A stretch of DNA of 61,530 nt, the filler included, from Sphacelaria rigidula (Eukaryota): NCBI GenBank assembly GCA_964200075.2. It is 4 parts of 4 records of this genome, joined end to end, with 100 filler letters (N's around TTAATTAATTAA, not from the genome) between each part and the next. Parts side by side here need not be neighbours in the genome. Positions count along the whole stretch, not along the records: positions 1 to 15,309 come from CAXNAA020001804.1; 3 more parts are not named here. The stretch is one strand, 5' to 3'. Of this stretch, positions 1 to 58,312 are shown one piece after another. The position numbers were made by a program, and so were the translations under genes. Numbering within the stretch: the stretch's first letter is position 1; every line of letters begins with the position of its first letter. Below the pieces are notes generated by a model. It had not been told where the DNA came from. It did not search any database and saw only the letters and a program-made list of their open reading frames with translations.

Positions 1-895
1 GCCGATCATACTCCGTCCCCCTGCTTCCACCCACCATCAACCCCCCAGCCCCCCCCCCTCCCCTCCCCCACCCGGCATGGTGTACCGCAGTTCAGTAAGA
101 GCTACGGCAGGGAAGGGAATGTAGCACCCCTCTCCCAAGTGAAAAGCTTTGCGATTTCGATTCTCTCGAGTTGCTGAAGATCCTGCAGTATGTGATTTGT
201 TTAGTGGTCGACCTGTCGTTTTTTCTTGTGGGGACAAAAGACTACTCGTGTCGATCGTGATGAGGATCGCTGGCTTTGGATTCGGTCAGAGATGTCTCGT
301 GTTTTCACCTCTTGTTGTCGCCTATGTAGTGAGGGTAGCCGCCATGTGTCACCTGTGTCGGGGTTATCCGGATTATGACTCCAACGTCAATCGGGATGGC
401 GGCATCAATAGGTCGGTTTTACTGTAATGTTTTATATCTCATCATTCGTCTCTGTCTACTGGCCGGTCTGTTTGTGTGACGGCCTTCCGCCATGGACCTT
501 TGTTCGAGTATGATGTTGAGGTATGCGATGATGTCGTCGTGTTGTTGTTGTTGTTGTCTCCACATTGAGAAAAACCGTTCCGATATCTGCGTAGTACTCT
601 GTACTGGGCATCTGATGCGGACGCCTTCCGTGGTCGCAGGCTAACTGCCCCGAGCGAGGGTAGACGAGAACAATAAAACCAAAATCGGACTCAAAAATGT
701 TTCACTCAGACGACGCGATACAAAAGAAATAGAGAACAAATAGAAGAAAAATACAAGAAGAAAATATATATGCGCGTCTCTTTTGGTATATATATATATA
801 TTTGATACATCAACTCTTGGTGTGAGTCGTCTGTGGATATATTTGTCGACATCAACAAATCATCTCCGTTGGGTTTTACCGGTATTGCTGTGAAG

Positions 896-1045
896 GTGAA
901 GCGGGCGCTTGGCGCGCAGTGCTTCCCCGTGGGAGGATATGCGATCAAGACATACCTGCCTGACGAGGAAGTGGGTATCTCGGCGTTCCTCTGCCACGGG
1001 CAGGAGAAGAGCTGGTTCGTCAGGGTCAACGAGACGCTGTGCAAG
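896..1045 (+). CDS. Exon (first seen in window; gene 5'-partial) of a Pol-beta-fold nucleotidyltransferase-like protein, plant-type PAP/OAS1 substrate-binding family
   Basis: AG|GTG...AAG|GT, 150 nt, phase 0. Encodes VKRALGAQCFPVGGYAIKTYLPDEEVGISAFLCHGQEKSWFVRVNETLCK, which resembles the family motif FGSVPLKTYLPDGDIDLTAF. The nine exons (896-1045, 1754-1975, 3008-3127, 3645-3776, 7058-7297, 8744-9160, 13315-13511, 14348-14579, 14816-14926) splice in frame with GT-AG introns and no stop. Confidence 0.88.
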
Positions 1046-1753
1046 GTCAGTACGAGGGTTACGGAGATGTGTTGAACGGGTGTACCCCCCAACCCTTCGC
1101 GAGGAAGCCATGGCTGATACACTCGTCGCCCTATCCTCACCCTTACCCTGGCGCTGAGCCGACTCCTAACCCTAGCCAAAACCGTGGAGTGTCAAGTAGC
1201 GCTTTCGTGTGTTTTGCGAACTGGCTTCAGCTTTGCCCTCCGGGCGTTGGGCCTCATTTCGGAAGTATAACGGCGCGTGCTCGTGACTGGCGGTGCCCTC
1301 GATTCTACGGTACGACTGAGTTGATCCGCTCTGTTCAATGTTGGTAAGCAGCGCCGCCGATGACATGATGCCGTGTGTAGTGTACAGTTCCCAAGCTGTG
1401 ACTGACGCTGATCGGTTGAACAAGGCTGTCGTCTGTCACACGGTTCGTAGGGTGTCGCTGACATGTACTGTACAAGACGGACCCTGAAATACAGGTACGA
1501 CAGTACGGTGGTACCCGTCAGTTCTCATGTCTTGAGCTGACGGACTTGCTGTTTTCGTCGGTTGGTTTCATTTCTTCCTGAAACACCCTGTTTGCTTTTA
1601 GCTGTTGTTGTTGATGTTGGTGATGCCGTTATTATTGCTTCCGTGGCATTCTTTTGCCCTCCTTTTTTTTCTTTCGTTCTCGTGCTCGTGACACCGAGTA
1701 CCCTGTTCTATGTTTTTTTAACTTTCTGGTGCTCCCCCGCCGTCAAAATGCAG

Positions 1754-1975
1754 GTTTCGAGCGAAGCCTCAGAGGAAGCGGCGGCCGAAGGCGGGAGTGG
1801 GGTTGCTGTTAGCGGAGATGCTGGAGAGGAGCAAGCAGCGGTAGGGGGGGCAATCGGGGGTGCGGTGAATGATAAGGACGCCGACGAGGGGTCTAGCTAC
1901 AAGCATCGCCTGAGTAACGTCAATTTTATTAATATGGGCAACTTGCAGAAGATCAAGTGCGTCGTGGACAATCAG
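1754..1975 (+). CDS. Nucleotidyltransferase-like gene, exon 2
   Basis: cag|GTT...CAG|gt, 222 nt. An E/A/G-rich insert is followed by LSNVNFINMGNLQKIKCVVDNQ (family motif VKxIKCLVDNI). Confidence 0.88.
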
Positions 1976-3007
1976 GTATTGCGCCCTTGCTTCAGCCAGC
2001 TGTAGATTCATTTGATTGGTCGATGCGTGAAGCAGCAAATCACGTGCTCTTGGTTGACTGGTTTGATCATCCCGAACCCAGTCCGTGGTCGGTGACGAGA
2101 TAAATCGTGCAGCACTCAAAAGTCATGTCAACGAGGAATACTCGCTAGAGAGGGAGCTCGAGTTCAAGAGGCAATAAAAGGCAAAAGGTAGCGAGGAGAA
2201 AACTGAGAAACGCTGACGATAATTAATCGGATATGCAGTGACCCAGTCTGCCCGCAAGCTTGCTCCATCCGATAGTGCTGAAATCTTGCCTGTTTCGCGT
2301 GGACTGGATCATCCCCGGTGCAGTCTCACCTCTGACCTTGCCTTTCAACTCCTGGACTGCTCAGCAGTGTGTGCATCCATTTTGAGTCCAGGTGTGCCAG
2401 TGACAACGTTTGTGTCGTGCTTGGAATTTGACGTACGGAACTAGACGCACAAAAACAGAATTCTTTACCGAGGGCCCAAGAGTTGTTCATTTGCTGCACT
2501 GCACGCGGTGTTTGTGGTGGTGGTGGTGGAGGAGCTGAATGGATGATGACACGCAGGATTAATCCGAGCCCTCGGTTGATTCTGATGGCTGCTGGATAAG
2601 CGCCACAAGAATTTCGTGCTGTTCATTGATATGCTCTGCGGTCGAGCGATTCAAGTACAAGAGTACACCAATGGCCAGGTATCGTTGGACGGAAGAGATG
2701 CGGTTCTCAATGCCTACAGGCGCGGTGCATTCGAGAAGAATCAGGTTCGGCCGTTCAAAGCATGGGGGCCTTGGGAGCAAAGGATGTGTTCGGCGAGAGT
2801 CGACAGCATGCGGGAGTAGTGCTAGTCGTATCCACGGGTGACGTCCCGTACAAGGCGGGCGGGGGGTTTGAAGTAATGGAGGAGAGGGAAAGGAATCGTC
2901 TGACCACCCGTTATTTATAGTTGTAGTGGCGCACGTGCTACGACGGTTGACGAGCGTCCTCCTTCCATGTTTGATCTACGCGTTTGGTGCGTCTTGGTCG
3001 GAAAAAG

Positions 3008-3127
3008 GTGGCTGTCGATATCGGAGCCAACCAGGTCGGGGATATTGCCACTGTTGCGTTGCTGGAGGAGACCGACCAGCTGCTGGGAAAGAACCATCTC
3101 TTCAAAAGGAGCCTTCTGCTAATCAAG
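3008..3127 (+). CDS. Nucleotidyltransferase-like gene, exon 3
   Basis: aag|GTG...AAG|gt, 120 nt. Encodes VAVDIGANQVGDIATVALLEETDQLLGKNHLFKRSLLLIK (family motif VVDISFNQLGG...LE.VD.LIGK.HLFKRSIILIK). Not present in the ORF track. Confidence 0.92.
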
Positions 3128-3644
3128 GTGCAAAAATCCCCATGAAACAATGCTGCCATCTGACCAAATTATTTCAGCACGTTTTCGAGTACATTTTCTC
3201 AAGGTATTTTGATGTGGCATAGGTGGACATTGCACGATTGCGCCAAGGGATGAGCCCACGGCCGTTATTTGAACTTTGGCGTCGTAGCCGTGTTTGTGTC
3301 TTTCGTTTTCCTGCTATTCAATTTGTGCAGCTTTGGATCATACTGGCTTTGGTATTTTGTGCCTATCGAGCAATAAGCAAGGCACTCCAGCGAACCCTAA
3401 CCCACCTATTAGGGCGACTGCCGGGCAATTTTGGCACGTGCCGGAGAGAAGCATGTAGCTGACTCCTCGTGGGCGCAAGAGGATGATCAGGGTTGGGGAT
3501 AGTGTTACAGAGTGAGGGTTGGAAGGTTCATAGCGATGTAGTTCGTGTACGGCACAAAAGTGATGAATGAATCGACTCCGACCTCACCAATGTGTCCAAT
3601 TTTGTTCGCGCCAACTGGTGGGTGTTCTTCGTCGATACGAGCAG

Positions 3645-3776
3645 AGCTGGTGGGTGTACGAGAGCAGGGCGTATACGGGCAGCAACATGCTGAGTAGAAT
3701 TACGGAGGCTGCTCTAGCGACGATGGTGCTCGCTGTGGTGAATCAGTACCACGCGAGGCTGCACACCCCTCTCCAG
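3645..3776 (+). CDS. Nucleotidyltransferase-like gene, exon 4
   Basis: cag|AGC...CAG|gt, 132 nt. Encodes SWWVYESRAYTGSNMLSRITEAALATMVLAVVNQYHARLHTPLQ (family motif AWCYYESR...STYALETLVL...L.GPL). Confidence 0.92.
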
Positions 3777-6225
3777 GTGTGTATTCATGTTGGTGTTGGC
3801 AGGCAAAAGCGACGGCCGGTGTACACTGCATTTTGCGTTGCGTCCAGTGGCTGCATTAGCTGCGCGGGATTCAGGCTGTCATTGCTGCACGGATGAATTA
3901 ACGATGGTGAGTGTACCGTGGAACATGACAGCTAGTTCGTTCGAGGTGCACCCTACAGCATAGATGGACCCCTGCGACTTTGTTGATTGGCCACAACGTT
4001 TAGCAGTAGTTCCTGCCGTGTGCATGCTGCAGTTGCAGGTGGGGTGTCTGGGGGTTCTCTGGTGTCTCGCTCTTCCGCAGCGGTATCATGGAATACGACA
4101 ATTCCCCTCTACCGGTGTGTTTCGGTTTGTGCCCACCGTGTAGTTGTTTCGCACAGAGTCTCATGGATCCTCGCGTTCTGCTAAAGAACGTGTCGTTGTT
4201 CGCGACCTATCTGTCGACTTAGGTTTGGGGTTGTACACTTTTTGCAGTCACGAGCAAGAAACTGTGGGTATGGGTGTCGGTGTTGATTAATTTTAATTCA
4301 TTGATTAGTATCGCACTTCACCCCATCCACCAGGGATCCAGCCGTGTTTCTCATGATGGACTTACACAGGATAGACGTACCCGAGACAAGGCAACGGTGA
4401 AACACTCGGTGAAGAAAAGAGACGAAAAGCAGCAAAGGTCGAACCGAGTAGACTAGGAAATAGTACTCGGAGTGTCAAACAAAATGAAAGGAGAACGCCA
4501 CGAAAAACACAAACGAGAGGAAAAAGAATGTGACATGTGTATCATGCCTGGCACCCAAGGGTCCACAGTCGTGTCTTTGGCGTGGCGGTGTCACCGTCGA
4601 CGTGCTGGTGCCATGGCGATCTCGCCACAGAACACAAGTCACTCATCGATAAATTATTCCGCGACGACGACTGAATGTGTAGTTGTGATTCTTGTGATGC
4701 CCTTCATCTCGGAGGGAGCGAGGCGTATGAACCCCTTAGGTGCGGGATGACATGGGTGACCATAGTTGGATCCTCAATAGACTGCTTACAGTGTGTGAAA
4801 AGCAACTAGATACCTATCGTCACACCGTCATATTTTCATGAAGTCACTGAGTGGAGTCAAGGGATTACCCAAAATATATTTCAACGGCGGTGATCGTCAA
4901 CAGAGGAGTAGCTGCTCAGCTGTATACTAGGTTCGCGGGTTACCGGCTGTGAAGGACGGCCTGCCATGCTTTTTTTTTTTTCTTTAGCGAAAGTCGGCAA
5001 AGTCCACCCCGAGCATCGAGGTTTAATTCGAAATATTTACGAATATGAGGTTTCAGCTGCTTCCGTCGCGACGCTCAGTAGATTATTCCAAGATATTTGA
5101 TGGATACGTTCAAGTAGATCGTTCCTCGTCCAATCTCTGTACTGCAAGCTGACAGAAGTGGAACCCCAGCATCTGCTGAACCGGCACCATTTTCATTCGA
5201 AATAGAAAACCATGCAGCTCCGGTATGGTGAACAAGGCTGGTACGTACCAGAAATAATCTGATGTTACTGTAGAAAATTCCTCGGGCGTATGTGTAAATT
5301 TCGGGGAGAAGTTGAATCAATGTAGTGCAAGTTGGACATTTCAGGAAGAAGTTAAAAATCGCATGGCTCTAAAGCGAAAATTTCTTGCCCGAAAACAGGG
5401 CCTGCGGCTGATTCCGCTGCGCTCTGCTAGAGCGAACTCAGCCAAGGCAATGTGTTTGCCAGCTGTAATATCGAAGGACGTGAGTATGTTCAGTGAACAG
5501 TTGATAAGAGCTAGCATTAGAGTGTAGTCGGGTCAGTGCGTGTATAATACAAGATTTGAATACGTGTATTGAAGCCCGAGATGGTCTACGAGCCTCGGAG
5601 GGGAAAATGTCACCGCTTACAGTTGTAGACTCTGACCGTCATTGTTACCTAGATGAGGTACAGTTAGGACAAAGCACAGCAGGCGTGTTTACGGCAGGTT
5701 GAAGGATCACGGGTCTGCCGGTCTGTTGAGGCACTCCGTGAGTGTTGAATCTCGAGGGTATAAGGTTTATTGTCACCTTGTGGGAGGAGCAGCTGGGATG
5801 TTGCCCTCCTGTAGAATAAACAGCGAAGGTAATGAATGAATAACTAGAACTGGTGAACTAACGTGCCAATCATGGAAGGAGTCCGCGTAGCTGACTGGCG
5901 TTGAGTGACATGGAGTTCATTGGGTCCAGTGTTGAACAGGTGACACGTCAGCCCAGGGGAATCGGTGAGTTTGCAGGCATCATGGGCTTTCACGAAACGA
6001 AATCAGCTCAACACGTGTCTATGTCGAGAAGGGGCGGATAAAGCGAAGCCGAGGGGTGTTCTGAGGTAGTGCTAGGGCGTGCTGTGGTGTCGCACGTGCG
6101 CAAGGCGGGGGGACCACAGGGCACGAGAAAGGGTGGATGAAGAGTTGATACTGAGCTCTTGAAGCCCCCTTGAAAGCATAACGCCGCATTTTGAGCGCGA
6201 AGATAATTTGTTCATCAGTGTACGT

Positions 6226-6575
6226 GTTGTGTGTTGTCATCCTATCTATTCTGAACGCAAGTGCACACCTTTCGGTATATGTGGGCGCATCAGTCGGGGC
6301 CACAGGAGGAAGACCAAGAAAGGGGTTATTTCTTTTTCTTTTGATTTGGGACTCCACCGTCCTTCTGCGGTGCTTGCCTAATTTTTTTCAGGTTCAAAAG
6401 TCACTTTCCCTCGACGACCGTGAAGTTAAATTTTGTGTACCGACGACACTGTTGCTCTCTATTGTTGAGTATTGTGTGGGAAATAATCCCATATCGTGTG
6501 ACCGCACCAAGAGTCGAACCCGCGACCCAACCGTCAGGAAGTTGAGAGGTAACCAACTGAGTCACTGGGGCGACC
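6226..6575 (-). mobile_element. tRNA-derived SINE in intron 4
   Basis: The minus-strand head GGTCGCCCCAGTGACTCAGTTGG...GGTTCGACTC has A-box and B-box-like motifs. The 3' part (ACACCTTTCGGTATATGTGGGCGCATCAG on +) recurs at 46094-46124, and both copies have a (TGT)-type simple tail. Confidence 0.7.
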
Positions 6576-7057
6576 AGTGATTCAGTGTCGACACGATATG
6601 TTAAGAAGGCAGTGTGTTGTGTTGTGTGACGTGTTGCAATGTGTGAGCGATTGTGTGGCGACCGGGGAGATGAACAAAGAAGAGAGAGAGCCCCCGTCAC
6701 GTTGGCGGCGAATGACGTGTCCGGACAGGAGTGTACATGCGAGAGAAAGCGTGGGACAGGCTTTGGCACAAATGTTGCGGCCCTCAAACTATGGCAACGG
6801 ACGTGAAAGCAAATGTAGTCTAATTTCGAGTGGACGAAATGGTGGTCTGTGAGGACTCGAGAACGAGCGAAATGCTGCACTGTGCGACGTCGAGATGTAA
6901 CTCTCCTGGTCTCTGACGAATGTCCCAACGTATGAAGAGGTAAAAAATTGTATAGCACAAAGTTTATGCACAGTTCTCCTCCCTCTTTCTGTTTTGGATA
7001 TCTTGAAAAGTTGTGTGTGTCTCGCTCAGTTTGCTCTTCTTTTTTTTTCTGCCGCAG

Positions 7058-7297
7058 GTCATGGCCTTATTTTTTCACATGCACAGTCATTTTGACTGGA
7101 GCAGGTACTGCTGGTGCATCGAGGGTGCTCGTCGCCTCGACACCCTGCATAGCAACACGCTGCACAGCACTGCCGCCGGTGGTACTGGAAGCGCTAGGTC
7201 TGACGGGACCGGCGGTCATACAAGCGACAGCTATGGCGATGAGGCACAAGCGTTCGAGGGACTAGCAGGGCACCAGGCGCCGTTGCTTCTGTCCCAG
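7058..7297 (+). CDS. Nucleotidyltransferase-like gene, exon 5
   Basis: Polypyrimidine tract, cag|GTC...CAG|gtaaag, 240 nt. Encodes VMALFFHMHSHFDWSRYCWCIEG... (family motif VLY.FL..FS.FDW..YC.SL.GP). Confidence 0.9.
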
Positions 7298-7734
7298 GTA
7301 AAGAGCTCTGATACCAACCAATTTCGCAGGGCGGTCCTCGCGTACGGTTTTTGGGTAATGACGGCACGGGGCGGTTGTCCGTCATTCCGGGCCGAAGTTT
7401 CGCATACTCAATTCTCCTCATATGGAGGGTATGATATATATTCCGACTGGAAGTTAGGTCGAGACGCCGCATCCGAGTTTCCTGTTTTTTTCTTTTCATG
7501 AACCCTTCTTTGAAAATGACTGATGAAATTTCTCACTGCCAATCCGGGGGCGTTGAAGGCATGGTACACAAAAAAGCAACTCGAAAATCAAATTTACGCT
7601 ATCGAATAAGGGGGGTTAATGGTAGCTTGCGGCCGAATCAGGCGACGTCAGTTTTGGATAAAGTCAGAGAAGGTTTCACTGCTTGGACGCTCAGAGTTCG
7701 TACGAGTAGGCTCCCCGTGAAGGTTAAACGTGAA

Positions 7735-8290
7735 TCATGTACCAAAGGGCCACCCGGTATTAATCACGGATAGCAAAGTTGTGCGTTCGAGGCCGTACCG
7801 CACGAATCACGAATTGGGAATGTGTACACTACAAGTAGTACGTCACGAATCAAAAGTGAAGAATACTCCGGAGTATGTACGAACCACAATTTCTGTCTGA
7901 AGCATGGGTGGGAACCATGTACAATTTTTCCATCTCGTATGAACGAAAGGTGGATATCATATACCTATGATATCGGGAAACATCTACGCTTGATTCACCT
8001 CGTATGAGTGGACGGTGGAGAACATGTACCCGTGATTTATATCGCATGATGGGAAATTGAGAAACATGTACGCTCGATTCACCCCGTGGCATGAAAGGCC
8101 AATAACACGTGAAAACGAATCGTGCTGCACGAATGAAAGGGAAGATACATGTACGCTCGATTCACCTCCTGTCTATGGAAGGTGGGGAACATGTACCTAT
8201 GATTGCTGTGCGAATGCAAGGTGGAAAAAACACGTACATGCGATCCATACTCCATACATGTAAGTGGAGAAACGCACGTGGGACTCATGC
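7735..8290. repeat. Degenerate minisatellite, ~42-bp period (~84-bp higher-order unit), intron 5
   Basis: A CATGTAC-like core recurs at about 7737, 7820, 7874, 7916, 7958, 8022, 8065, 8148, 8190 and 8232. CATGTACGCTCGATTCACC is repeated at 8065 and 8148. Confidence 0.7.
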
Positions 8291-8743
8291 AGTATAAATG
8301 TACGATTTCGTACTACTGTTCAGCATCCGGACAAATCCGGCGGCCATCAGCAGTATCGCTGAAGAGCCAACGTCTTGGGCGTTTCTCAAATCCCACCGCA
8401 GATTACGTACAGGCGAGCTGTTCGCATTTGGGCCGCTCTCTTGTGTCCGCACTTATGTACTCCCCCTCCTATATCCGCGACTCGTTTCAAGCCTACATCA
8501 TCATGACTTCTTGTCACTCACGCAGTATTGGATAAGTTTTTTCATCCCTGAGTGTGTCATATCGCAACTTTGTACTCGAGAAAAATTTCGATGGAAACTG
8601 CCTGTTTGGAATGCTGACTTCGTCGCGCCCTGTGTGGTGACGTGATGCATGGATTCTCAGCAAACCCTGACCGTAATTACGTACTCACCCCGTCTAACAT
8701 CCCCCCGGCTCGTTTTCTCCCACCACGCGCACGGCGACTACAG

Positions 8744-9160
8744 GAGGTACTAAACCGCTACCGGTTGAGACACGGCAACAAAGCCAAGCAGCAGCGTGCC
8801 CATGCGATAGGCTCCGGGGGCCGCAAATCCCCCGGTACTGCAACGACCACGCCAACGACAGCATCTACTCTTGGGGTGGGAGTAAGCGATCTCGCGGGCG
8901 ACGCGCCTATACTTCGGGGTCCGGGCGTCGATGCTGGGTTTTCGGAAATTGGGTCGAGGGGTGCAGCGGTAGGTCAGGTGGCCGCTGGTGCTGGAGGGGA
9001 ACGCGGCGGGGGTGTCTCGGGAGATGGAGGAAAGGATGAGCAGTCTCGGAAATTCCCGATCCGGAACATGAACGTCATGAATCCGCTGGACTGCAACGAC
9101 AATCAGATCGATGAAACGGTTACGAGGAAGCGTGCTGCCCGCATGCACAGCTTGCTGCAG
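8744..9160 (+). CDS. Nucleotidyltransferase-like gene, exon 6
   Basis: cag|GAG...CAG|gt, 417 nt. A G/A/T-rich linker is followed by FPIRNMNVMNPLDCNDNQIDETVTRKRAARMHSLLQ (PAP-associated-type motif F..K.LNI.DPL...NNLGRSV). Confidence 0.85.
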
Positions 9161-9929
9161 GTATTTTTCTCGTCTTTTCTCGTTTTCTTTTGCTTGATGT
9201 TCTGTGTTTTTGTCCTTTTTTTTTATTAGATCAGTTTTCTGTGTGACGTCCATCATCGCGATGTTGATGGCTCGCTTTTCGGCACTTACGATGACAATGA
9301 GACAGTAGACCCAAGCCCATGGTGGTATTTTGATCATCAGCGTTGAAAGTTCCAGCCCGACGCCAACGATGTCGTGAGTGCACTATAACGTGTTCTTATG
9401 GCTTTACCGTCCACCCGTGACGGCCTCCCGACTGGAGATGTATATGTCGGAAAAAGTCAATCTCGTCAACAAGCAGACGACGAGGGGAGTGACATGACCT
9501 ACAAAACAGTCTACAGAGCAGCCTGTGTAGTGCGCTAGTTAGATGAAATGTATTTTTTTTACCCGAAGCTCAGTCCCGCAGCTCCGGAGTTTCACTCAGC
9601 GTTGAGATACTGGAACGGATAAAGCGTAGGTGGAGATGAGATGCCAGTGAGTGTCAGCTTCGACGACTTGGAGCTAGCGTTCGACGCGGGCTGGGACGGC
9701 TGCACCTTTGAGAACAAAGTGCGAAGCATGTATCTGAATTTTAACGTACCAGGGAAAGAGCGGAATAGAGGGGAAAATGCCCGCACCTGAGATAAGTAGG
9801 AGGGCTAGACCAGAAAGGAGGGCACGGCAAGGAGAGAAGCGTATAGATGCAGATGGGAGCTAAAGCTAGGTCCAGTACTGGGGTGCTTATGATGGCAACC
9901 TATTTACTTCTTTCATTACAATCACGAGA

Positions 9930-12870
9930 CAAAATGAGTTTAGTCATGCCAACGTGTGTATGCAAAAGTGCACAGCGATGAGTTGTGACGCCAATGGGCG
10001 GCAGGAGAATAGGACACCGAGGAAAACTGAGTTATCTGCCGCGGGATACCGCGTAGTTCGCTGCAAGGCGGAAGGGGCAACGGAAGGGCCGGACAACATG
10101 TGACTACCTTTGCGGTCCCGGAGTCGATCATCAACAAGGATATGTAGATACATATAGGGACAGGTCCTGGGCTGAGGTGCACAGCACTGTGAACCGAGTT
10201 CCGACACTTTCTACGATAGACCCCCCCCCGAAAAGTGCATGGCTTTGGGAGGCAAAATCTTCACGTAAATCGAAAGGGGAAAAGCCAAGCACAACAAGGA
10301 GCTGGCAATTCTCACGCTCGGGTTCATTCTAGCCAATGTCGACAATATGAGGCGCTTCATGCAGCCTGAATCCGAACATCAAGCGCTGATTGGTCTTTTT
10401 TTTTCGTGACACTTTTAGCTGGTGTTGGGGGGGGCTATCGTAGAAAGTGTCTTCCCTACGACAGCAATGTATTTGAATCGATGGATGGTAACGGTATGGC
10501 TGAGAAAAAAAGCAGGAGAGGAGGATGCGAAAAAAGTATGGGCATACGACGTACGGCAGGGGGCTCCTGGGCCACTGACAGCAATGGCACTGTATTACCT
10601 CGAGTTCCAGGTGACAACACACCTACTACTCTCATCGAAACGTTCTTTTACCCCAGAAACAGTCACGTGGCGTATTGCAAGCCGTCCAGCGGACAACAAA
10701 TATACTGGCGGATCATCACACAGTGTGCCCAGTGCCGACTTGTTCGAAATGTCGCGTCCACCACTTTTCTCGGTTTGCCCTCCACTCCGACCACGCTTCG
10801 AACTTTTTCTCGTACCCGCTTCTTGTGCTGGCGTTAATTGACGCGTGGGCTAGTAGTTCTACTAACTTCGCACCTCTCTTCTCGCCTCGAGCGAGGCATC
10901 CCATTTGTCCTGCAATGATTTGACGAGTTCAGCGCGAGTTCAGTCTTGTGGTCTATTGATCATGTTCCTGATCTGTTGGTCTAGGCTTTGCTCCAGGGGT
11001 TTCTCTTGCAAAATCATTCCGAGCATCTCTTTGCCTCGATTCCCTAGAGCTGAGTGGAATGTACATGACCGCCTGCGCTATCAATGAACACCAAACTCGC
11101 CAAACACTGATCATGAGATGATGAGCGCCTCAGTGAGGCTCCTTGGCCGATTCGTACGCAACAGACACCGGCGAATCCTCACCGGGTGCATATCTGTAGA
11201 TGGCGAGCAATAATCGTCTGTTACCGACGAGCGTGAGCAACTCACACAGCTTGAACAAGCAACCCCGGAGTTTCCCTAGGATAACTAGCTGCAAACCTCG
11301 CCGTCAACTCCCAAGACTCGACAGTCCCGTGTATGAGGTTGGTTCGAGGATGCTACGATGCAAGCCGAGTTCAAACAGGCCTGTGGTTTACGGAAAAAGA
11401 CGTTGGTGTTACTGATGAGGACGTTGCCGTACCTCGCGTGCAGCTACAGCACAGGGGTCTTGGCTAGACGATTGGGCCGGGTTGAGTGCCAACTGAAGTG
11501 ATGAGGCTTGGATTTCTGGAGGAGCTTTTGAAGACCCTTCGCCATTTTCGCAGCATCGGCAACGAGCTTTATGGTTGTCGTCTGGACGTCTGGTGAGGTA
11601 TCCCAGTAGTGCAAGAACGCCACTCTTGAGGTGCTACACAAGGAGAGTAGCACGGAGTGTGGTAACTACAATGACATGTCACTCGTGGCGCATGCTGGTG
11701 ACGGTCTCCCCAACAGCTTTGCAAACATACTCGGTAGTTTCTGCGAGAAGGCAAGATTTGACCCAGAAGACGAGAGCGGATTCCGGCGTGCATGATCAAC
11801 AACCGAGATGATGATCGTGGAACGCCCACTGCAGGAGATGTGACGGGCAAGCATGCATGCCATTCACCTGGACAACGCGTAAGACTCCAATATTGGCGCG
11901 CTTTTTTGGGAAATTATCGCTCGTTTCGGAGTCCCGCCGGGGGTGGTGAAGATCAGTTGTATGCCCCCACGATGGCAGGCGACTCGGGTACGGCTGATGA
12001 CAACAGTATCGAAGGGTTACCACGTCTGCCAGTGCCACAGGCAAGGGTCCTTTTCAGCTTCGTTGCTGTTCGACATCTTGGGCCCAGCATTGGTCGATGT
12101 GATCTCACATCGTTTCGCGGCAGATCCAGCCATCATCTCACACTTGGCATACAAAGATGGTGAGCCAAAAAGCGAGGATGGCATCGACGATGAGACCCCG
12201 CCGTAGAGGGTGCGGAGCGCGTTGTGGGAGTGCTGTACGTGGATGACGCCGGTCTAGCTTCGAAGTCTTGGGACGGGTTTGTTAGAATGGTGGATGTGGT
12301 GGTGGTCTATCAGGGGCTCGGAACACCAGTATGGGAGAACGAGGCAGAGACCGAACGTCTACACTCCGTACGCAGCAAGCCAGGAAGCATTGCACATCAA
12401 AGCGGCAGACCAGGGGTATAAAGAGACGGTCGGTTCTGACTACGTTGGTAGTTCTGTCAGCTCAGGCGCGAATATTTCCCATCGTCAAACTCAAACTTGG
12501 CATGAGCGCTGCGTGGACATGGCTCCGAACATACAGTTGCCAAACCTACGATCAACCCAACGCTCAGCTCTACAGTATATCGGAATACGGTATTTCAAAG
12601 CGGAGGTGGTGGCAGCTGAGCTTTACGGATGTGTTTCACTGGCGCTGCTGCCTGGCCTTTTATCGCGAGCAGCTGGTTTCCACAGGAAGGGTAGTAGTCG
12701 ACAAGACGACTCTGTCGTATCGTGCCGCGGTCGAGAAGACGCGATGCAAACGTATGGAGGCGACTACCGCAAGCATGAACTTCAGTTCGTGAGGCCCCTG
12801 GTTCATTCCGTTGTCATGATGGCGTCGTGGTTGAATAAGAGGGGGGTAACGTGTTCCCGTTGTTTCGCGG
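9930..12870 (+). mobile_element. Decayed RTE-type non-LTR retrotransposon (APE endonuclease + RT) in intron 6
   Basis: Relic motifs occur in the expected order across many stops and frameshifts. Endonuclease: SCD..GRQENR, NGT..RVPGDN...ETFF, RLVRNV, HSDH. RT: ECGNYNDMSLVAHAG, SGFRR..STTEMM, WEIIARFGVP, RQG....LLFDI, VLYVDDAGLAS. Confidence 0.85.
10203..10451. mobile_element. MITE (249 bp) nested in the LINE endonuclease region
   Basis: TIRs GACACTTTCTACGATAG(A)CCCCCCCC / GGGGGGGGCTATCGTAGAAAGTGTC, with a 4-bp TTCC duplication (10199-10202 and 10452-10455). A second partial copy lies at 30818-30876. Confidence 0.85.
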
Positions 12871-13314
12871 ACGTGTTACATTAGACCATAATCCACGAGC
12901 CGAGCGCTCAGGTGGCGTGTCTTGCGGTTGACTACTAGAAGGCCCGTATTGTATCTCGAGAGGGTGGCGCCTTTTCTCATCCGGTGTGGTGTTTGCCTCA
13001 GGGTCAATGTAACGCTAACTTGAGTAGATGACGTGGGCCAAGCGCGAGAGGCCATTATCTCTTGTGGTTTCGGAAAAAAACGAAAAAAAAGGGGTAGATT
13101 CGACAAAGCTGTCCGAGAAAGACCTACAAGCTGCGGAAGTGCTCATGTATAGCTCATACCAAAGTGCAATGTTGTTCCTATCGGAGAATAGATGTTGTCC
13201 CCTGGAGACTCTTGGACGAATGCGGAGGAAAGGGTGGGGTTGGAACTACGATACACATACACGTAAATGATCTCGTCACGTACTGTACGTTATCACCACA
13301 TTTTGGATACACAG

Positions 13315-13511
13315 GTCGGCGCCCGCCAGCTTCGGCCTGTGCTTATGCACCTAAAGCGAGAGGTGACCAAGGCTCAACGGGGTCAGCCGGTGCCACCGCA
13401 ACCAGGGTACATGAATACATCGAGCGTGTCAATGCTAGAGAATTTCTTCGCTCTCAGCTGGGCTCGCTTCGGCGAAGGCTGGCGCCCGGATGTGCCCCCG
13501 CATTTAGACAG
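13315..13511 (+). CDS. Nucleotidyltransferase-like gene, exon 7
   Basis: cag|GTC...AG|gtgagt, 197 nt, phase-2 end. Encodes VGARQLRPVL...MLENFFALSWARFGEGWRPDVP (family motif GA.KL...FF.NTW.RHG.G.RPD). Confidence 0.88.
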
Positions 13512-14347
13512 GTGAGTTTCGATGTCTCAGTCAGATTCACGCACACGTTGTAGAACACAGGATCGTTCGTCCGCCAAAATCACTAGTTTTTACGGTGTAC
13601 GTGGTCAATTAAGCGATTTTTGATTGATGGTAGCACTTTACATGACTCCCAGGGATCCAGCGGTGGTCACATGATGGACGCACCCGAGACAAAACAAATA
13701 CTTGAGTCGTAAGGAACGCGCCTATGTATCATGGGCAAATGTTTCCGGCTCAGAGTTGGTTACGTAGAGAGCACTGCACGCTGGGCACGTGGAGTATTAA
13801 AGCCCTATTTGCGCGTGAACTTCTCGGACCCCGCGGTCGCCTTTGTGGTGAAACAGATGGTCGGAGTAACACTGTCTTTCCGGTCTGTTATGTTGAGTAT
13901 TAAGTTGTTTCTGAAGTCATCACTCGGTACGACTGTGTGATGGTGAAAGGTGCTACTGACTAGACTGAGTCTGTTTTCAAATGTGGGCTTTCGCTGTCGC
14001 TGGAATGGTGGGGGACGGGGGGTTGTGGGATGACTCACCTGTTACAGCCCTGCTACCAAACGATTCTTTGTTTTGGAACGGTTTTCCGCTTACTGTCTCA
14101 ACTAGCATACAGCGGTCAAAGTAGAACCCGTTTACCTTGGTGTACTGCCTTTTCATCCCAGCTATGTCTTGAGTAGCGTTGGTGTGTTTCGACTGGCCAA
14201 GCATGGATCGGGTCGGCAGAGCGATTGTGATGGAACGTTGTGCTCGAATTTTGGTCGCCAGGACCTCTGCCTGGGTTCGGTGTGAAAATGTAAAGAGAAA
14301 AGTTAATCTGATGACGTGTTGTTTTGTTTACCCTACGAATTTTGTAG

Positions 14348-14579
14348 GGATGACGGGGTAGGCAGCAAGATTCCGTGGTTAATGACTGATCACGACCATA
14401 ACAGTTTCGGTAGCTTGGATGAGCTGTCGCGTGCTGTGCTGGTGGAGGATCGTGTTCGGGGCGATGATGATGAGACGCACTGTGGGAAGGACGAATCCGA
14501 TGATGCCCTGGTGGACGCCGTGGCCACAGGAGCTTCCAGTGCCGGGCTCCCTCGCGATGAGAGGAGCGATCCGTTCCAC
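14348..14579 (+). CDS. Nucleotidyltransferase-like gene, exon 8 (acidic linker)
   Basis: tag|G GAT...CAC|gtacgt, 232 nt. Phase matches exon 7. Encodes DDGVGSKIPWLMTDHDH...DERSDPFH. Confidence 0.78.
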
Positions 14580-14815
14580 GTACGTTGAGTTGCTACTCTG
14601 CCTTTTTTTATTCCGTCCATATATGGGTTTCTTGTCTGTATCCTCCATGTTTTGCTTTCTCCTTTCACCCGCTCGTCTGCCCTCTCTCTGTCTGCGCTTT
14701 TTCGGTCCTCATGGACATTTCTCTTGCCCCTGTTTATTCAGGATGTGTCTTTCCTTGCTGTGCCCTGATAAGCCTCATCGCCTCCCTGACTGATTGATCG
14801 ATTTTTTGTTTTCAG

Positions 14816-14926
14816 GTTGACCTCCTGAGCGTGCGCGACAGCGTCAAGTATTGCTGCTTCTTGCTCGAGGCCGAGGTGACGGACTCTGCGCTTCTCGCCC
14901 TGTCCAAAGAAATCCTCGCAGATAAG
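14816..14926 (+). CDS. Nucleotidyltransferase-like gene, exon 9 (gene 3'-partial, runs towards the assembly gap)
   Basis: ttttcag|GTT...AAG|gtaacc, 111 nt. Encodes VDLLSVRDSVKYCCFLLEAEVTDSALLALSKEILADK. No stop codon is reached before the gap at 15310. Confidence 0.8.
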
Positions 14927-15309
14927 GTAACCAGAGGTCACTGTTCACAGCCAGACTTCTCTCCAGAAATTTATCATACCCAAATTGCCGCTCAAAATCA
15001 CCGTCCACAACCGCATTACTCGCCCGAACGTTATTATACAACCACAAACCTCCCACACACCCTAGTCACTGTGGCAGTCGAAAGGTTGAAATGCATATGT
15101 TCGTCAGGAATTTCATTGTCCAAGAAGTTGTATCCCTTTTCACGTGAGGTATCTTACATTTGTGCCATGTCCGCGTTTCTTCTGAAGACATTTGAGAGTG
15201 TAAATGTCGAGTTTTGAGGAGTAAACCTTTGGAAAACAACTACAAACAACAAATTGTGCGAATTGAGGTTCAACTCCGGGATGAGGTTCAAGCCTAAAAC
15301 AGTGCTTTC

Positions 15310-15409
15310 NNNNNNNNNNNNNNNNNNNNNNNNNNNNNNNNNNNNNNNNNNNNTTAATTAATTAANNNNNNNNNNNNNNNNNNNNNNNNNNNNNNNNNNN
15401 NNNNNNNNN
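15310..15409. other. Assembly gap with six-frame stop linker
   Basis: 100 nt of N with an embedded TTAATTAATTAA. Confidence 0.98.
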
Positions 15410-30717: not shown

Positions 30718-30817
30718 NNNNNNNNNNNNNNNNNNNNNNNNNNNNNNNNNNNNNNNNNNNNTTAATTAATTAANNNNNNNNNNNNNNNNNNNNNNNNNNN
30801 NNNNNNNNNNNNNNNNN
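30718..30817. other. Assembly gap with six-frame stop linker
   Basis: 100 nt of N with an embedded TTAATTAATTAA. Confidence 0.98.
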
Positions 30818-46124: not shown

Positions 46125-46224
46125 NNNNNNNNNNNNNNNNNNNNNNNNNNNNNNNNNNNNNNNNNNNNTTAATTAATTAANNNNNNNNNNNNNNNNNNNN
46201 NNNNNNNNNNNNNNNNNNNNNNNN
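46125..46224. other. Assembly gap with six-frame stop linker
   Basis: 100 nt of N with an embedded TTAATTAATTAA. Confidence 0.98.
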
Positions 46225-54641: not shown

Positions 54642-57600
54642 AGACCGATATTAGTGCTAGTGTTAGTGCTTGAAATAGTACCCAGCAAAACCTGCTGTAA
54701 GGATTTCGGCGGAGGAGTCTGGCAGCTGTGGAGAATCTGAAAAACCACGGACGCGTGGAGAGGGTTCCAGCGGAGGCGGCTGCAGAAAAGCGGCTGGCCT
54801 GTGATTGATCCAGACTAGAAACTTGCTGAAGCTGCGTGCAGCGGAAGTTTGGAAGCTCTTACAACTGTGTGGTGCGGCGACGAAGCCAGGAAATGTGCAA
54901 TTCGCGAAGGTCCGCTGGCCTGCAAAATGTTTGCAAGTAGCCGGTTGCAGCTATGGCCACCGGCTCGCGTGGTACGTCCAGCGTGACACCCGTGGTCATG
55001 CGGGAAGAGTTGCGACCTCCCCAATACAGGAATAGGTACTCAGAGAGTACATCTCGTTCTTTTTATACGAAGTAGTTTGAGTATAAGAAGCGTGTGGAGC
55101 ACGCTCACGCAGGGGGTGCTGCACGGCATCAGGTGGTGTCAGTGGCTCAACAAGTACCAACTCATGTGCAGAAAGTGTTTGCTCGTTTGGAGCATGATGA
55201 GAGCACAATCACCTCACAGCAGCTGGTTGCGACGATCAAGAAGTATGGGCATGCGGCGGGCACCGAGGTGGAGCTGACCCAAGTGTCCGCGACCGTGGCG
55301 AAAGCTGTCGCCATGGGTTCTAGGGGAAATACGATGTTGGAGTAGGTGGAGTCAATCCTGGGGAAGTATTTCACGGAAAATCCGAACGTGGAACTGGTAT
55401 ATCGTTCCCCCGGCTGTAGTAATCACTAAGGCTTTGATGGAAGGGTTAGCGCCGGAAAAATTCAAGCAAGCCGTGCTTGTCAAGCTGAGGCACGAAAAGA
55501 ATTAGAAGGCAGACCCCTACTTGGTGATGGACACCGTCCAAGGAGTGGCGGGAAATAGAGGTGTTTGGCCAGTCGTCCACCTCCTCGCCGAAATCTTCGC
55601 GCAACCACAGCTCGAAATTGACCGGCTGCGCCGCGAGTATTACTTGCCACCGCTGTGGCCAGGTCGGCCATTACGCGCGCGATTGCCCAACGTCTTCCGG
55701 TGGAGAGTCTGGGCAGTCTTATGCCGCGCGCCATCAGCATCGTCAACACAAGGGCAGAGGACGAGTTGATCGGGGTGGTGGCGGCGGCGGATCCTCCGGC
55801 GGTGGAGGGTCGCAGTCGAGTCTTCAGCAGCAGCAGCAGCAGCCGCAGCAGCAGCAGCAGCAGCAGCAGGGGCAGCAGGGGCAGCACGGATCTGGTTCTG
55901 GGTCCGGCGCCGCTGTAGGTGCTGAGAGATGCTACGGTAGCAACAGGCGGCGCAGGTGGGACCGACTTCTACGCGCAGGTGGAACCGACTTCTACAGTGT
56001 CGAACATTGTGCCGGCGCCGGTGGTGGCGCCAGTGGCGACACCGGCAGCAGCGCCAGGCGCGACACCTGCTGATGCGTTGATCGGAAGTTCGCTAAATTC
56101 TTCGTCTGCTGGCTGGGAGTCATACCCGCCAGCGGTACCGTTTGAAGCTGCCGGGGCGTCTCCGCCTGCGCAGCTAGCGCAGCCTTGGCGTCAAGTGGGA
56201 TTAGCGGCGCATTCGTCCGCGGATGAAGTGCCAGTGGAGTTTGCGGGCAGGTACGTTCCTGCGGAGTTGTGTCTTCCAAATCAACGGGAGAGTGGAGCCA
56301 TTGTGGTTCGGTCTGTGTTGAATTCTGGCGCCTATTTCACTAGTCTGCCGGTGCAGATGGTGGACTCTTGGGTGTGCCGCTGAGCATCCCGTTTTCGCTC
56401 GGGGCGCGGCAGGCAGTCACCACGTCGGGTCAACATGTTCCCGTCACGGAGCGTACTGTTCCGTTGCAGTTGGCCTTCAAGACTGCCTGGGGGCTGGCGC
56501 CGTTGCCTCCGATCTCGTTTGCAATTATGACGGAGTCGGATGGCGTTGTTCTTCTGGGGTTGTCGACGCTTCAGGATCTAGGAATCGACCCGTATGAGCG
56601 GTTGAAGGACTCCATCAAGACGCGGATATCCCCGCCTGGTCCGCACGTGGAGATGCCCGCCTTTTTGGACAGTCGTCGCGTGAGCTTGTCGCTGGGTGCT
56701 TTTCAGGAGGCTGGGGGGGCAGGCGACCGAGGAGCGGGATGCGGCGGTGGAACGCTGGGTAGAGCGCGGCCTGGACGTGTTTATGGATCCGACGGAAGAC
56801 GAGTCCGCCCGGACGGTCGCGCTGGAGGAGAGCATGACGGATGCTGTGGTGAAAGGCCTCAGCGTCCCCAAAGCGGAACGCCTGCGCGGAAAATTTCATC
56901 GCCGCGTCAACGCGTTTCGTCGTGCGCTGCGGGGTGATCCCCATGCACGTATGGAGCCCATGCGTGTTCAGCTAAAACCTGGGGTGTTCGCGGTGAAGGT
57001 GAAGCCGCGGCGGTACGATCCGGTGAAGTCGAGCTGGTTGGCGTCGTGCATGGCGGCTCTTCTGGCGCATGGGTAGGCAACCCGGAACCTGCAGGCGGTG
57101 TGGTCCAGTCCGGCGATGGTGGCTCCCAAAAAAGACTCGTTTTTTCCTGGAAAGCGTCTACAAGGCCGTAAATGAGCAGGTTGAGAAGTCGCCGGGTGTG
57201 ATGCCCAATCAAGAGTTGGACATGCGTGATCTCTTGAGTGCTCGTTTTATGACAAGTTGGACCTCCTCCAAGGTTATTGGCAAATGCCGTTGGCGAAGGA
57301 GGCGCAGGGAATTTTCACAATCACGACCCCGTTTAGCTTGTTTACCCCGAAGCGAGTGCCGCAAGGCGTGCTGAATGCCATGGCATATTTTCAAGGCATC
57401 ATGACAGAACTGCTTGTCGGCTTGAAATGCAAGATATGAGTGGATGATGTGGTTTTGCGCGGACACGGAAGACAGACGCTTAGATACGCTTGATGCTATC
57501 TTGGCTGGTTTAGAGAATGTTGGTTTGTTTGCGGTGGCGCACAAATGCACTTTCTTCGCTAGTGAACTCGTGTGGTGTGGGAAGGTGTACTCACACGGAG

Positions 57601-58053
57601 GCGTATCTTATGGCCCTGTCAGATTGCAAGGCTTGTCTGACATGCGGCGCCCGGAGACGGCCGCAGAACTCATGCAATGCCCGCAGTTCGTCAATTGGCT
57701 GCGTACCTCGTTGCCGCGTATGGCAAAAACCGTAGCTGCCCTGCGCGTTTTCCTCGAAGAACTTATGGCGGGTGCTGCGTGGCGGACGAAGCGTGTTGCA
57801 GAAAACCGCGCTCTTCCACCTGCATCGCGGACGGCGAGTAGGCTGCAGGCGTGGGCGGCAGCGAAGGATCTGGTAGCTCACGCCGTGACGCTGTTCCATC
57901 CTCATCCTGATCGTCAGGTGTTGGTGTTTCCGGATGCATCTGAGTCCCATTGGGGTAGTTTTGTCACGCAGGTTCCTAAAGTTGAGTTGCAAAGACGCTC
58001 GCCGGTTGAGGATATAACGCATGCACCGCTGGCTTTCCTCCGTGGTAGTTTCA

Positions 58054-58312
58054 GAGTGATGCTGCGATAGGGTCTGCACTTTTGGGGTCAAAACCGGCCT
58101 GATTCAGGGGTTCCTAACAATTATGGACTACACAAGAGTATGGGTCAGGATATCCCAGTTTGCAAATTCATTCGGAATATCCCTAGCAAATTGGAAGAAA
58201 AATCCTGGCGTACTCTCACCTTTTTCGAAAGTCGTGTTTTGGATGAGATAAAGGGTTCCTAACAATTCTACTCTCAGGCCGTAAAAGTGCTGACCCTATC
58301 GCAGCATCCCTC
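58054..58312. mobile_element. 259-bp MITE (GAG...CTC termini, Sola-like) nested in Gypsy RNase H
   Basis: 30-bp TIR GAG(T/G)GATGCTGCGATAGGGTC(T/A)GCACTTTT with a 4-bp TSD TTCA. Removing it restores RGSFKSSQLRWATIDKE. Confidence 0.9.

Follow-up and report, generated by a model that had tools for sequence, protein, structure and literature searches.

A spliced nucleotidyltransferase gene in Sphacelaria rigidula

The stretch of DNA analysed here (the window: 61,530 nucleotides, filler included, from the Sphacelaria rigidula assembly GCA_964200075.2) is made up of four contigs of nearly equal length, the first of which (positions 1-15309, the entire contig G000:C1804) carries nine exons of a gene encoding a nucleotidyltransferase (NTase)-like protein with a degenerate catalytic site, very probably a catalytically dead pseudo-enzyme (Table 1). 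All nine exons have AG/GT borders and, as an earlier note made from the sequence alone had proposed, they join into a stop-free frame, which measures 1821 nt (607 codons, 0 stops). Transcript contigs from all four runs of a single study skip the introns from GT to AG, covering the eight joints (8/8) and ruling out a chance frame or mis-splicing; that these contigs derive from RNA is a guess, none of the runs being recorded as RNA, and the evidence of expression consists of the spliced contigs, which carry no expression level. Low-depth contigs were also seen over intron 2 (window 1948-2934), with one run joining an alternative donor near 2742 to exon 3, a signal of minor intron retention or alternative splicing.

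To call the gene intact, as the earlier note did, is an overstatement, because the frame has neither a start nor a stop and the transcript continues past the exons on both sides, the gene exceeding its contig at both ends. In run X1 a transcript contig overshoots the nine exons by ~2.1 kb on the upstream side and by ~0.35 kb on the downstream side, and the loose downstream end present in X2 and X4 corresponds to an exon on G000:C2869, of which it covers the initial 30 bases. Exons encoding a PX domain were found on the minus strand of G000:C16476 and, to judge from the orthologues, would belong to the same gene. The exon lying upstream of position 896 was found in this fragmented assembly neither by protein search nor with the exact pattern taken from a variant run.

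Among named proteins, those of Ectocarpus, Pylaiella and Scytosiphon come closest (94% in exon 1). With three Ectocarpales the core is identical at 48/50 and 127-130/134 positions (175-178 of 184 columns in total), with Discosporangium at 44/50 and 107/134, and with Platysulcus at 30/49 and 53/127. For run X4, 17 letter differences were listed, of which 11 are exonic, 8 synonymous and 3 nonsynonymous, over 430 silent and 1391 non-silent sites; two of the nonsynonymous changes fall in a Gly-rich linker and the third is E to D. This small sample fits purifying selection. The gene shows none of the marks of a decaying pseudogene (stops, frameshifts, loss of splicing or relaxed constraint), and a young pseudogene is ruled out by the orthologues and the constraint.

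The fold is preserved and the catalytic motif is degenerate

A Pfam scan of the nine separate exons returned no relevant family, and the library copy did not return PF26180 (PAP/OAS1-SBD), which the orthologues carry as a precomputed annotation. The fold was approached through the AlphaFold model of P0009, an orthologue from Phaeothamnion in which PDEEVG and VAVD recur; pLDDT is >90 across most of the core. This model matches GLD-2 (VIA Z 23.0, rmsd 2.5, 260 aligned), TUT7 and TUT1 (Z 22.1) and CutA (also within Z 22-23), with 82 Foldseek matches at E<=0.001. On this model, the module belongs to the Pol-beta NTase superfamily and has the fold of the non-canonical poly(A) polymerases and terminal uridylyltransferases (ncPAP/TUTases), with an NTase lobe and a PAP/OAS1 helical lobe.

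A register profile was built from 15 intact relatives and the Ectocarpus orthologue. Its segment GSfplkTYLPdgDiD aligns without gaps on Trf4 GSYSTDLYLPGSDID, so that the E-V-G of the Sphacelaria signature, GGYAIKTYLPDEEVG, falls on Trf4 D-I-D; this alignment makes E25 the first carboxylate position, G27 the second and D128 the third. In the P0009 model, moreover, strand 2 begins at the Val of EEVG. Both lines bear out the earlier claim that D-h-D has become E-V-G, and D128 confirms that the third carboxylate is kept (VAVDIG); the motifs on which these claims were based (GGYAIKTYLPDEEVG, VAVDIG and NPL..DNQI) are present as written at their coordinates. Rows reading GSVPL[KR]TYLPDGDID, as given in the same note, do occur among the family sequences, and are presumably plant proteins. 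The scenario that would have undone its claim, in which the acids of PDEE occupy the metal-binding positions, is weakened, and retains in its favour the conservation of an acid before the first Asp position (79/85 members of the clade described below).

Where an active terminal nucleotidyltransferase has [DE]h[DE]h in strand 2, S-[ST]-Y in the phosphate motif and DP..NN at the motif for nucleotide recognition (NRM), the Sphacelaria protein has E-V-G, T-E-A and NPL..DN, respectively; at the third carboxylate (h[DE]h) it has D128, and at the hG[GS] position its GG fits the superfamily pattern but lacks the Ser present in 32/34 intact relatives. The phosphate motif was placed with the profile segment glLStya, aligned on GSLSSYA of TUT4/7, and since this stretch is short and low-scoring, the assignment of E185/A186 to the Ser-Tyr pair comes from a weak match. 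We take the SSY of the TUTs to be S211/Y212 of Cid1. The Ser-Tyr pair of Cid1 contacts phosphates, according to passages of PMC5689010.

The loss is ancient and accompanied by two gained acids

The relatives examined were the best 150 of 1841 matches and are biased toward the query. Profiling covered 168 sequences (166 collected, the window splice and a paralogue from the same genome) and found both NTase halves in 143; the tree included the 139 rows with at least 70% of columns filled (4 dropped), comprising 85 rows of the clade in which the Sphacelaria protein sits (FastTree support 0.86), 34 intact rows and 20 other degenerate rows. An IQ-TREE analysis of 31 of the 85 clade rows and 36 others, from which the six trait columns had been taken out, supports the clade at 98/95. 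Its named members include Platysulcus tardus, a Parmales species, Coscinodiscus wailesii, Phaeothamnion, Discosporangium and Ectocarpales; Platysulcus branches near the base of the stramenopiles. A clade spanning brown algae, a diatom, Parmales and Platysulcus indicates, as far as the sequences go, that the catalytic loss is old.

Since the rows are related, the counts that follow are of sequences, not of events. The Asp at site 2 is present in 0/85 clade rows and in 34/34 intact rows, an acid at site 1 in 14/85 and 34/34, and an acid at site 3 in 65/85 and 34/34; no clade row (0/85) has acids at all three sites. The Ser of the GS motif remains in 5/85 clade rows, compared with 32/34 intact rows, and the NRM Asp in 6/28, compared with 29/31, among rows in which this motif is aligned, while the motif Tyr is lost clade-wide. 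Two acids have been gained: immediately before site 1, where 34/34 intact rows carry G, A or S, 79/85 clade rows carry D/E, and the S211-like residue, S/T in 32/34 intact rows, is D/E in 63/85. The 20 degenerate rows outside the clade fall at some five or six points of the tree, with the first gained acid in 9/20 and the second in 0/20. We read the tree as one well-supported loss, extending from Platysulcus to brown algae, and about five further separate losses in the family. The change of motif is conserved in orthologues (second Asp absent from 85/85 clade rows, EEVG in Phaeothamnion), and a species-specific change is ruled out by the clade-wide loss.

In orthologues, the probable pseudo-NTase lies between a PX domain and a winged helix

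The layout seen in orthologues is PX, coiled coil, NTase, PAP/OAS1 lobe and a LOTUS/Egalitarian-like winged helix, with a disordered linker before the pseudo-NTase and a basic, Q-rich tail after the winged helix. The earlier note, right on register and fold, overlooked the PX and LOTUS-like domains, and likewise how old the loss is and that acids were gained. The PX domain (Pfam E 1.5e-10 in the Scytosiphon orthologue) was found in 35/85 clade rows, many rows being partial. The residues R, Y, K and R, described in passages of PMC10380299 as critical for binding phosphatidylinositol 3-phosphate (PI3P), are kept in 23, 25, 23 and 25 of the 35 clade PX rows, and all four are present in the G000:C16476 exons. 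A coiled-coil-like stretch, judged by eye, follows the PX domain both in the clade and in the paralogue group, and an SNX16 profile match spans PX and coiled coil (E 1e-10). For a possible homodimer of the PX-coiled-coil part of P0007, modelled with no alignment used, the scores were 0.05 and 0.08, the mark being 0.32.

The winged helix was found in 62/85 clade rows. The C-terminal domain of 95 residues, modelled as a winged helix from fragment P0155, matches best the Tejas LOTUS domain (Z 9.4, rmsd 2.2, 71 aligned), followed by TDRD5 (Z 9.2), TDRD7 (8.2), Egalitarian (8.1, 24% identity) and MARF1 (7.9), and also the Oskar LOTUS domain; unrelated winged helices score equally well (see Discussion). 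Pfam WH_Egal was found in 12/42 members scanned (best E 2e-6), and OST-HTH was absent among the families shown for the same 42 members, 25 out of 28. A PDB sequence search with the winged-helix alignment gave nothing relevant, and the ESM Atlas gave no usable feature matches, its structure rows being generic winged helices. A K/R-rich stretch follows the winged helix in 19/41 clade members and in 1/14 intact ones. PAM2-like motifs, searched by pattern, occur in 6/87 tails, 0.18 being expected; in control bodies they occur in 2 of 87-94, 1.18 being expected.

Some relatives depart from this layout. In P0017, whose sequence is more degenerate, a DEP domain stands ahead of PX. P0071, P0079, P0110, P0125 and P0152 form a separate degenerate lineage, in which the second Asp is Asn and the third site Glu, and carry a winged helix and a U-box; these five account for all the U-box matches among the 42 members scanned.

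An intact paralogue in the same genome

An intact paralogue (GSFPTKTYLPCADID, VVVDVT, DPLNPLNNLG) lies on the minus strand of G000:C8367, at about 5700-8680, as one open frame of 952 codons, which stands out in an intron-rich genome. Neither a PX nor a winged-helix exon was found on this contig, which may be incomplete. The cores of the two Sphacelaria proteins agree at only 15/34 and 49/130 positions. The paralogue falls in the sister group of the clade (weakly supported, 87/59), together with intact PX-NTase-winged-helix proteins such as P0068 from the chrysophyte Epipyxis. PX, a D/D/D NTase and the winged helix occur together in 10/34 intact rows, including P0068, P0076, P0100, P0042 and P0066, and these PX-bearing proteins are, on their sequences, candidate membrane-anchored active tailing enzymes. 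Another intact member, P0101, carries the UniRef label of an amphipod, Hirondellea gigas, and possibly comes from an associated protist.

Other features of the window

Table 1. Exons, motifs and key residues of the probable Sphacelaria pseudo-NTase gene (window positions unless a contig is named)
Feature	Position	Strand	Basis or remark
Exon: NTase N-lobe, strand 1, GS helix, degenerate DxD (GG...PDEEVG)	896..1045	+	splice and register
Degenerate signature GGYAIKTYLPDEEVG	932-976	+	motif reading
G14, in place of the GS serine	935-937	+	exon 1
E24, gained acid	965-967	+	exon 1
E25, first carboxylate position	968-970	+	exon 1
G27, lost second Asp	974-976	+	exon 1
Exon: Gly/Ala-rich insertion, then NTase-lobe strands 3-4	1754..1975	+	splice and model
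Exon: strand 5, retained third carboxylate D128 (3017-3019), N132, basic FKRSLLLIK helix	3008..3127	+	
VAVDIG motif	3008-3025	+	
Exon: start of PAP/OAS1 lobe; L-S-[ST]-Y phosphate motif reads I-T-E-A, Tyr position lost	3645..3776	+	
E185, gained acid	3705-3707	+	fourth exon
Exon: PAP/OAS1 lobe (FFHMHSHFDW...GARRL) and low-complexity linker	7058..7297	+	
Exon: Gly-rich linker and altered NRM	8744..9160	+	
NPL..DNQI (DP...NNLG in intact relatives)	9080-9109	+	N401 at 9080-9082
Exon: final NTase-module helices and conserved RFG.GWRPD motif	13315..13511	+	
Exon: acidic low-complexity linker	14348..14579	+	
Exon: lead helix and helix 1 of the LOTUS/Egalitarian-like winged helix at the C terminus	14816..14926	+	
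Remainder of the winged helix	G000:C2869, about 545-659 and 1500-1750		downstream contig

Runs of N join the four contigs at 15310-15409 (N44-TTAATTAATTAA-N44), 30718-30817 and 46125-46224; these linkers connect separate contigs, and the remainder of the window is not the genomic neighbourhood of the gene. It includes a broken LTR-retrotransposon-like stretch at 55528-58067, with a zinc knuckle (E 2.8e-8) and a piece resembling the RNase H of reverse transcriptases (E 5e-4). Three intronic bins of the gene (511-1020, 6121-6630 and 10201-10710) show very high contig depth and are probably repeats transcribed elsewhere. To the eye, a stretch near 6500-6580 resembles a tRNA and one at 11600-12900 a LINE remnant, without support from ARAGORN, Rfam or Pfam; the tRNA (ARAGORN) and Rfam scans of the window gave 0 matches.

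Discussion

The earlier note held that the fold is preserved and that catalysis is lost or altered, and the match of fold, the register, the conserved clade-wide losses, the splicing and the constraint all support this, as do, in our sequences and models, the two gains of acid. We propose that a PX-NTase-winged-helix gene was duplicated early in stramenopiles, which would have left one copy with D/D/D, while the line of the Sphacelaria copy lost it. The gained acids would fill or neutralise the triphosphate site, offsetting the basic residues that are retained, and the site would be closed to NTPs, with no turnover. The PX domain would bind PI3P on endosome-type membranes, the pseudo-NTase and the winged helix would jointly bind RNA or ribonucleoproteins (RNPs), and the protein would in this way tether RNA or RNPs to endomembranes, from where they would be transported, translated locally or handed over to decay. 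The whole mechanism, in which a dead NTase serves as an adaptor between RNA or RNPs and PI3P membranes, is put forward tentatively as the most economical account of the combined parts, its chances being somewhat short of even.

Several observations weigh against a dead enzyme or against its proposed role as a tether, in addition to the bias of the relatives toward the query: (i) The Sphacelaria protein retains acids at sites 1 and 3, N132, K157 and K164, and has the new acid beside site 1, while 13/85 clade members keep acids at both sites 1 and 3; residual binding of metal is therefore possible. (ii) PX occurs in 12/34 intact rows and the winged helix in 19/34, so that these domains do not explain the loss, and in part of the clade PX appears to be missing or its lipid residues to be degenerate. 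(iii) The LOTUS matches of the winged helix tie with unrelated winged helices (I73R, Z 9.2; PadR-type, 9.0), and its model has no Foldseek match at E<=0.001. (iv) PAM2-like motifs are rare, with 3/44 among clade rows having both NTase halves, and none that is convincing was found in G000:C2869. (v) From its motifs, Tam41/MMP37 was judged probably inactive in passages of PMC2794190, and it is described as an active enzyme in parts of PMC7018664; motif-based calls of inactivity can therefore fail.

The alternative that survives best, though we consider it unlikely, is that the dead NTase acts without RNA, as the protein-binding module of a sorting-nexin-like trafficking adaptor. MiD49 and MiD51 use an NTase fold to recruit Drp1, and MiD49 is among the structural matches (Z 13.1); the PX and coiled coil resemble SNX16, a DEP domain has been added in the clade-like P0017, and the acids in the cleft could repel the 3' end of an RNA as well as an NTP. 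However, the nearest folds are those of RNA-tailing enzymes (Z 20-23), the winged helix, which is strongly conserved, comes closest to LOTUS/Egl domains, and the tails are enriched in PAM2-like motifs and basic residues.

The precedent of Tam41, together with the frequency of acids before site 1, at site 3 and at the S211-like position, is what would favour a second possibility, that the protein is still an enzyme with a remodelled site, in which E24/E25 and D128 (plus E185) bind metal and sustain a reaction that is slower or of another kind (on another substrate, by hydrolysis or as lipid-linked transfer); the Asn is also kept in 73/85 clade rows and a basic residue at the Lys site in 78/85. 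This we judge improbable, in view of the free variation of sites 1 and 2 (Pro in 51/85 at site 1, Arg/Lys in 36/85 at site 2) and the loss of the GS serine and the NRM Asp. In addition, 32 of the 36 rows with a basic residue at site 2 have an acid opposite it at site 3 (p 0.06, uncorrected for kinship), which looks like a salt bridge replacing the metal, and the acid before site 1 also appears in the degenerate rows outside the clade, as expected of a stabilising change after loss.

The existence of an intact paralogue (GSFPTKTYLPCADID on G000:C8367) in the same genome and in the sister group, and the coiled-coil-like stretch shared by both groups, raise the question of a dead regulatory subunit that would dimerise with the paralogue, or with another terminal transferase, to recruit or activate it. 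Such an arrangement has a precedent in DZF domains, which are NTase-fold pseudo-enzymes forming heterodimers, as stated in passages of PMC11952958. For the Sphacelaria protein it has little prospect, given the low core identity between the paralogues and a paralogue contig, perhaps incomplete, on which no PX or winged-helix exon was detected; nothing in our analyses favoured the role of partner to an active TUTase that the earlier note suggested. Finally, a cytoplasmic RNP-granule scaffold, whose LOTUS-like domain would recruit a DEAD-box helicase for small-RNA or transposon silencing, with PX secondary, is very improbable: the best structural matches of the winged helix (Tejas, TDRD5, TDRD7, MARF1 and Oskar), the long Q/G-rich disordered regions and the OST-HTH scaffolds proposed for stramenopiles in parts of PMC2848206 would suit it, whereas the conserved PX lipid residues across the clade and the absence of OST-HTH from the Pfam families shown do not.

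The Sphacelaria protein, read as an RNA tether, resembles several known systems and differs from each of them. (i) With the ncPAP/TUTases (Trf4, GLD-2, Cid1, TUT4/7, URT1) and PF26180 it shares the two-lobed fold, the order of motifs and the third Asp, but it has lost the second Asp, the GS Ser, the motif Tyr and the NRM Asp, has gained two acids, and is fused to PX and the winged helix. (ii) The first NTase domain of TUT4 is inactive, and reads SDVNID at the DxD site. Pseudo-NTases are already known as a kind, and NRAP/Utp22, the DZF domains of NF45/NF90, the first NTase domain of TUT4/7 and MiD49 likewise keep the fold in a conserved gene whose carboxylates are lost (passages of PMC2794190 and PMC11952958); the Sphacelaria clade, however, has an independent origin from the PF26180 family, and the known cases are, in those descriptions, without PX plus a LOTUS-like domain. 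(iii) In Drosophila Egalitarian, LOTUS-like winged helices and an RNA-enzyme fold with dispensable catalytic residues jointly bind localising mRNAs (parts of PMC13186709), and the winged helix of the Sphacelaria family matches both WH_Egal and Egl; nevertheless, Egalitarian has an exonuclease fold, three winged helices and a BicD-dynein link in place of an NTase fold, one winged helix and PX, and the likeness is one of analogy only. (iv) Ustilago Upa1 links endosomes and mRNPs through FYVE and PAM2 (parts of PMC4466420), an endosomal lipid-binding domain being combined with RNP-binding motifs as in the few members of the Sphacelaria family that have PAM2-like motifs; there is no homology, Upa1 has FYVE rather than PX, and a PAM2-like motif was not seen in the Sphacelaria gene. 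(v) PX-coiled-coil sorting nexins (SNX16 and SGK3/CISK-type PX) share the PX R-Y-K-R residues and the coiled-coil-like stretch that follows, and none of the PDB matches found together with SNX16 pairs PX with an NTase fold.

In the open-access literature searched, mostly by title and the start of the abstract, neither a PX-NTase-LOTUS protein nor this clade turned out to be described, and there was no paper combining NTase, PX and stramenopiles, and the main text of PMC2848206, as available, has 0 occurrences of 'nucleotidyl' or 'PX domain'. The architecture is real, old and apparently undescribed. A broader view, which we consider rather unlikely as a whole, is that an active PX-NTase-LOTUS enzyme might form an ancient phosphoinositide-anchored stramenopile pair with a dead twin whose triphosphate pocket is self-plugged, the twin being the RNA-to-endosome tether of this supergroup, convergent with Upa1 and Egalitarian and made from a poly(A)/poly(U) polymerase fold.

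To our knowledge, the localisation or disposal of RNA at membranes has been little studied in brown algae and diatoms. The clade provides a conserved and testable candidate for such a function, with a built-in control in the intact paralogue, and a clean case of pseudo-enzyme evolution in which a gained pocket acid recurs. The PX-bearing intact relatives suggest, furthermore, that in these organisms the tailing of RNA may itself be anchored to membranes.

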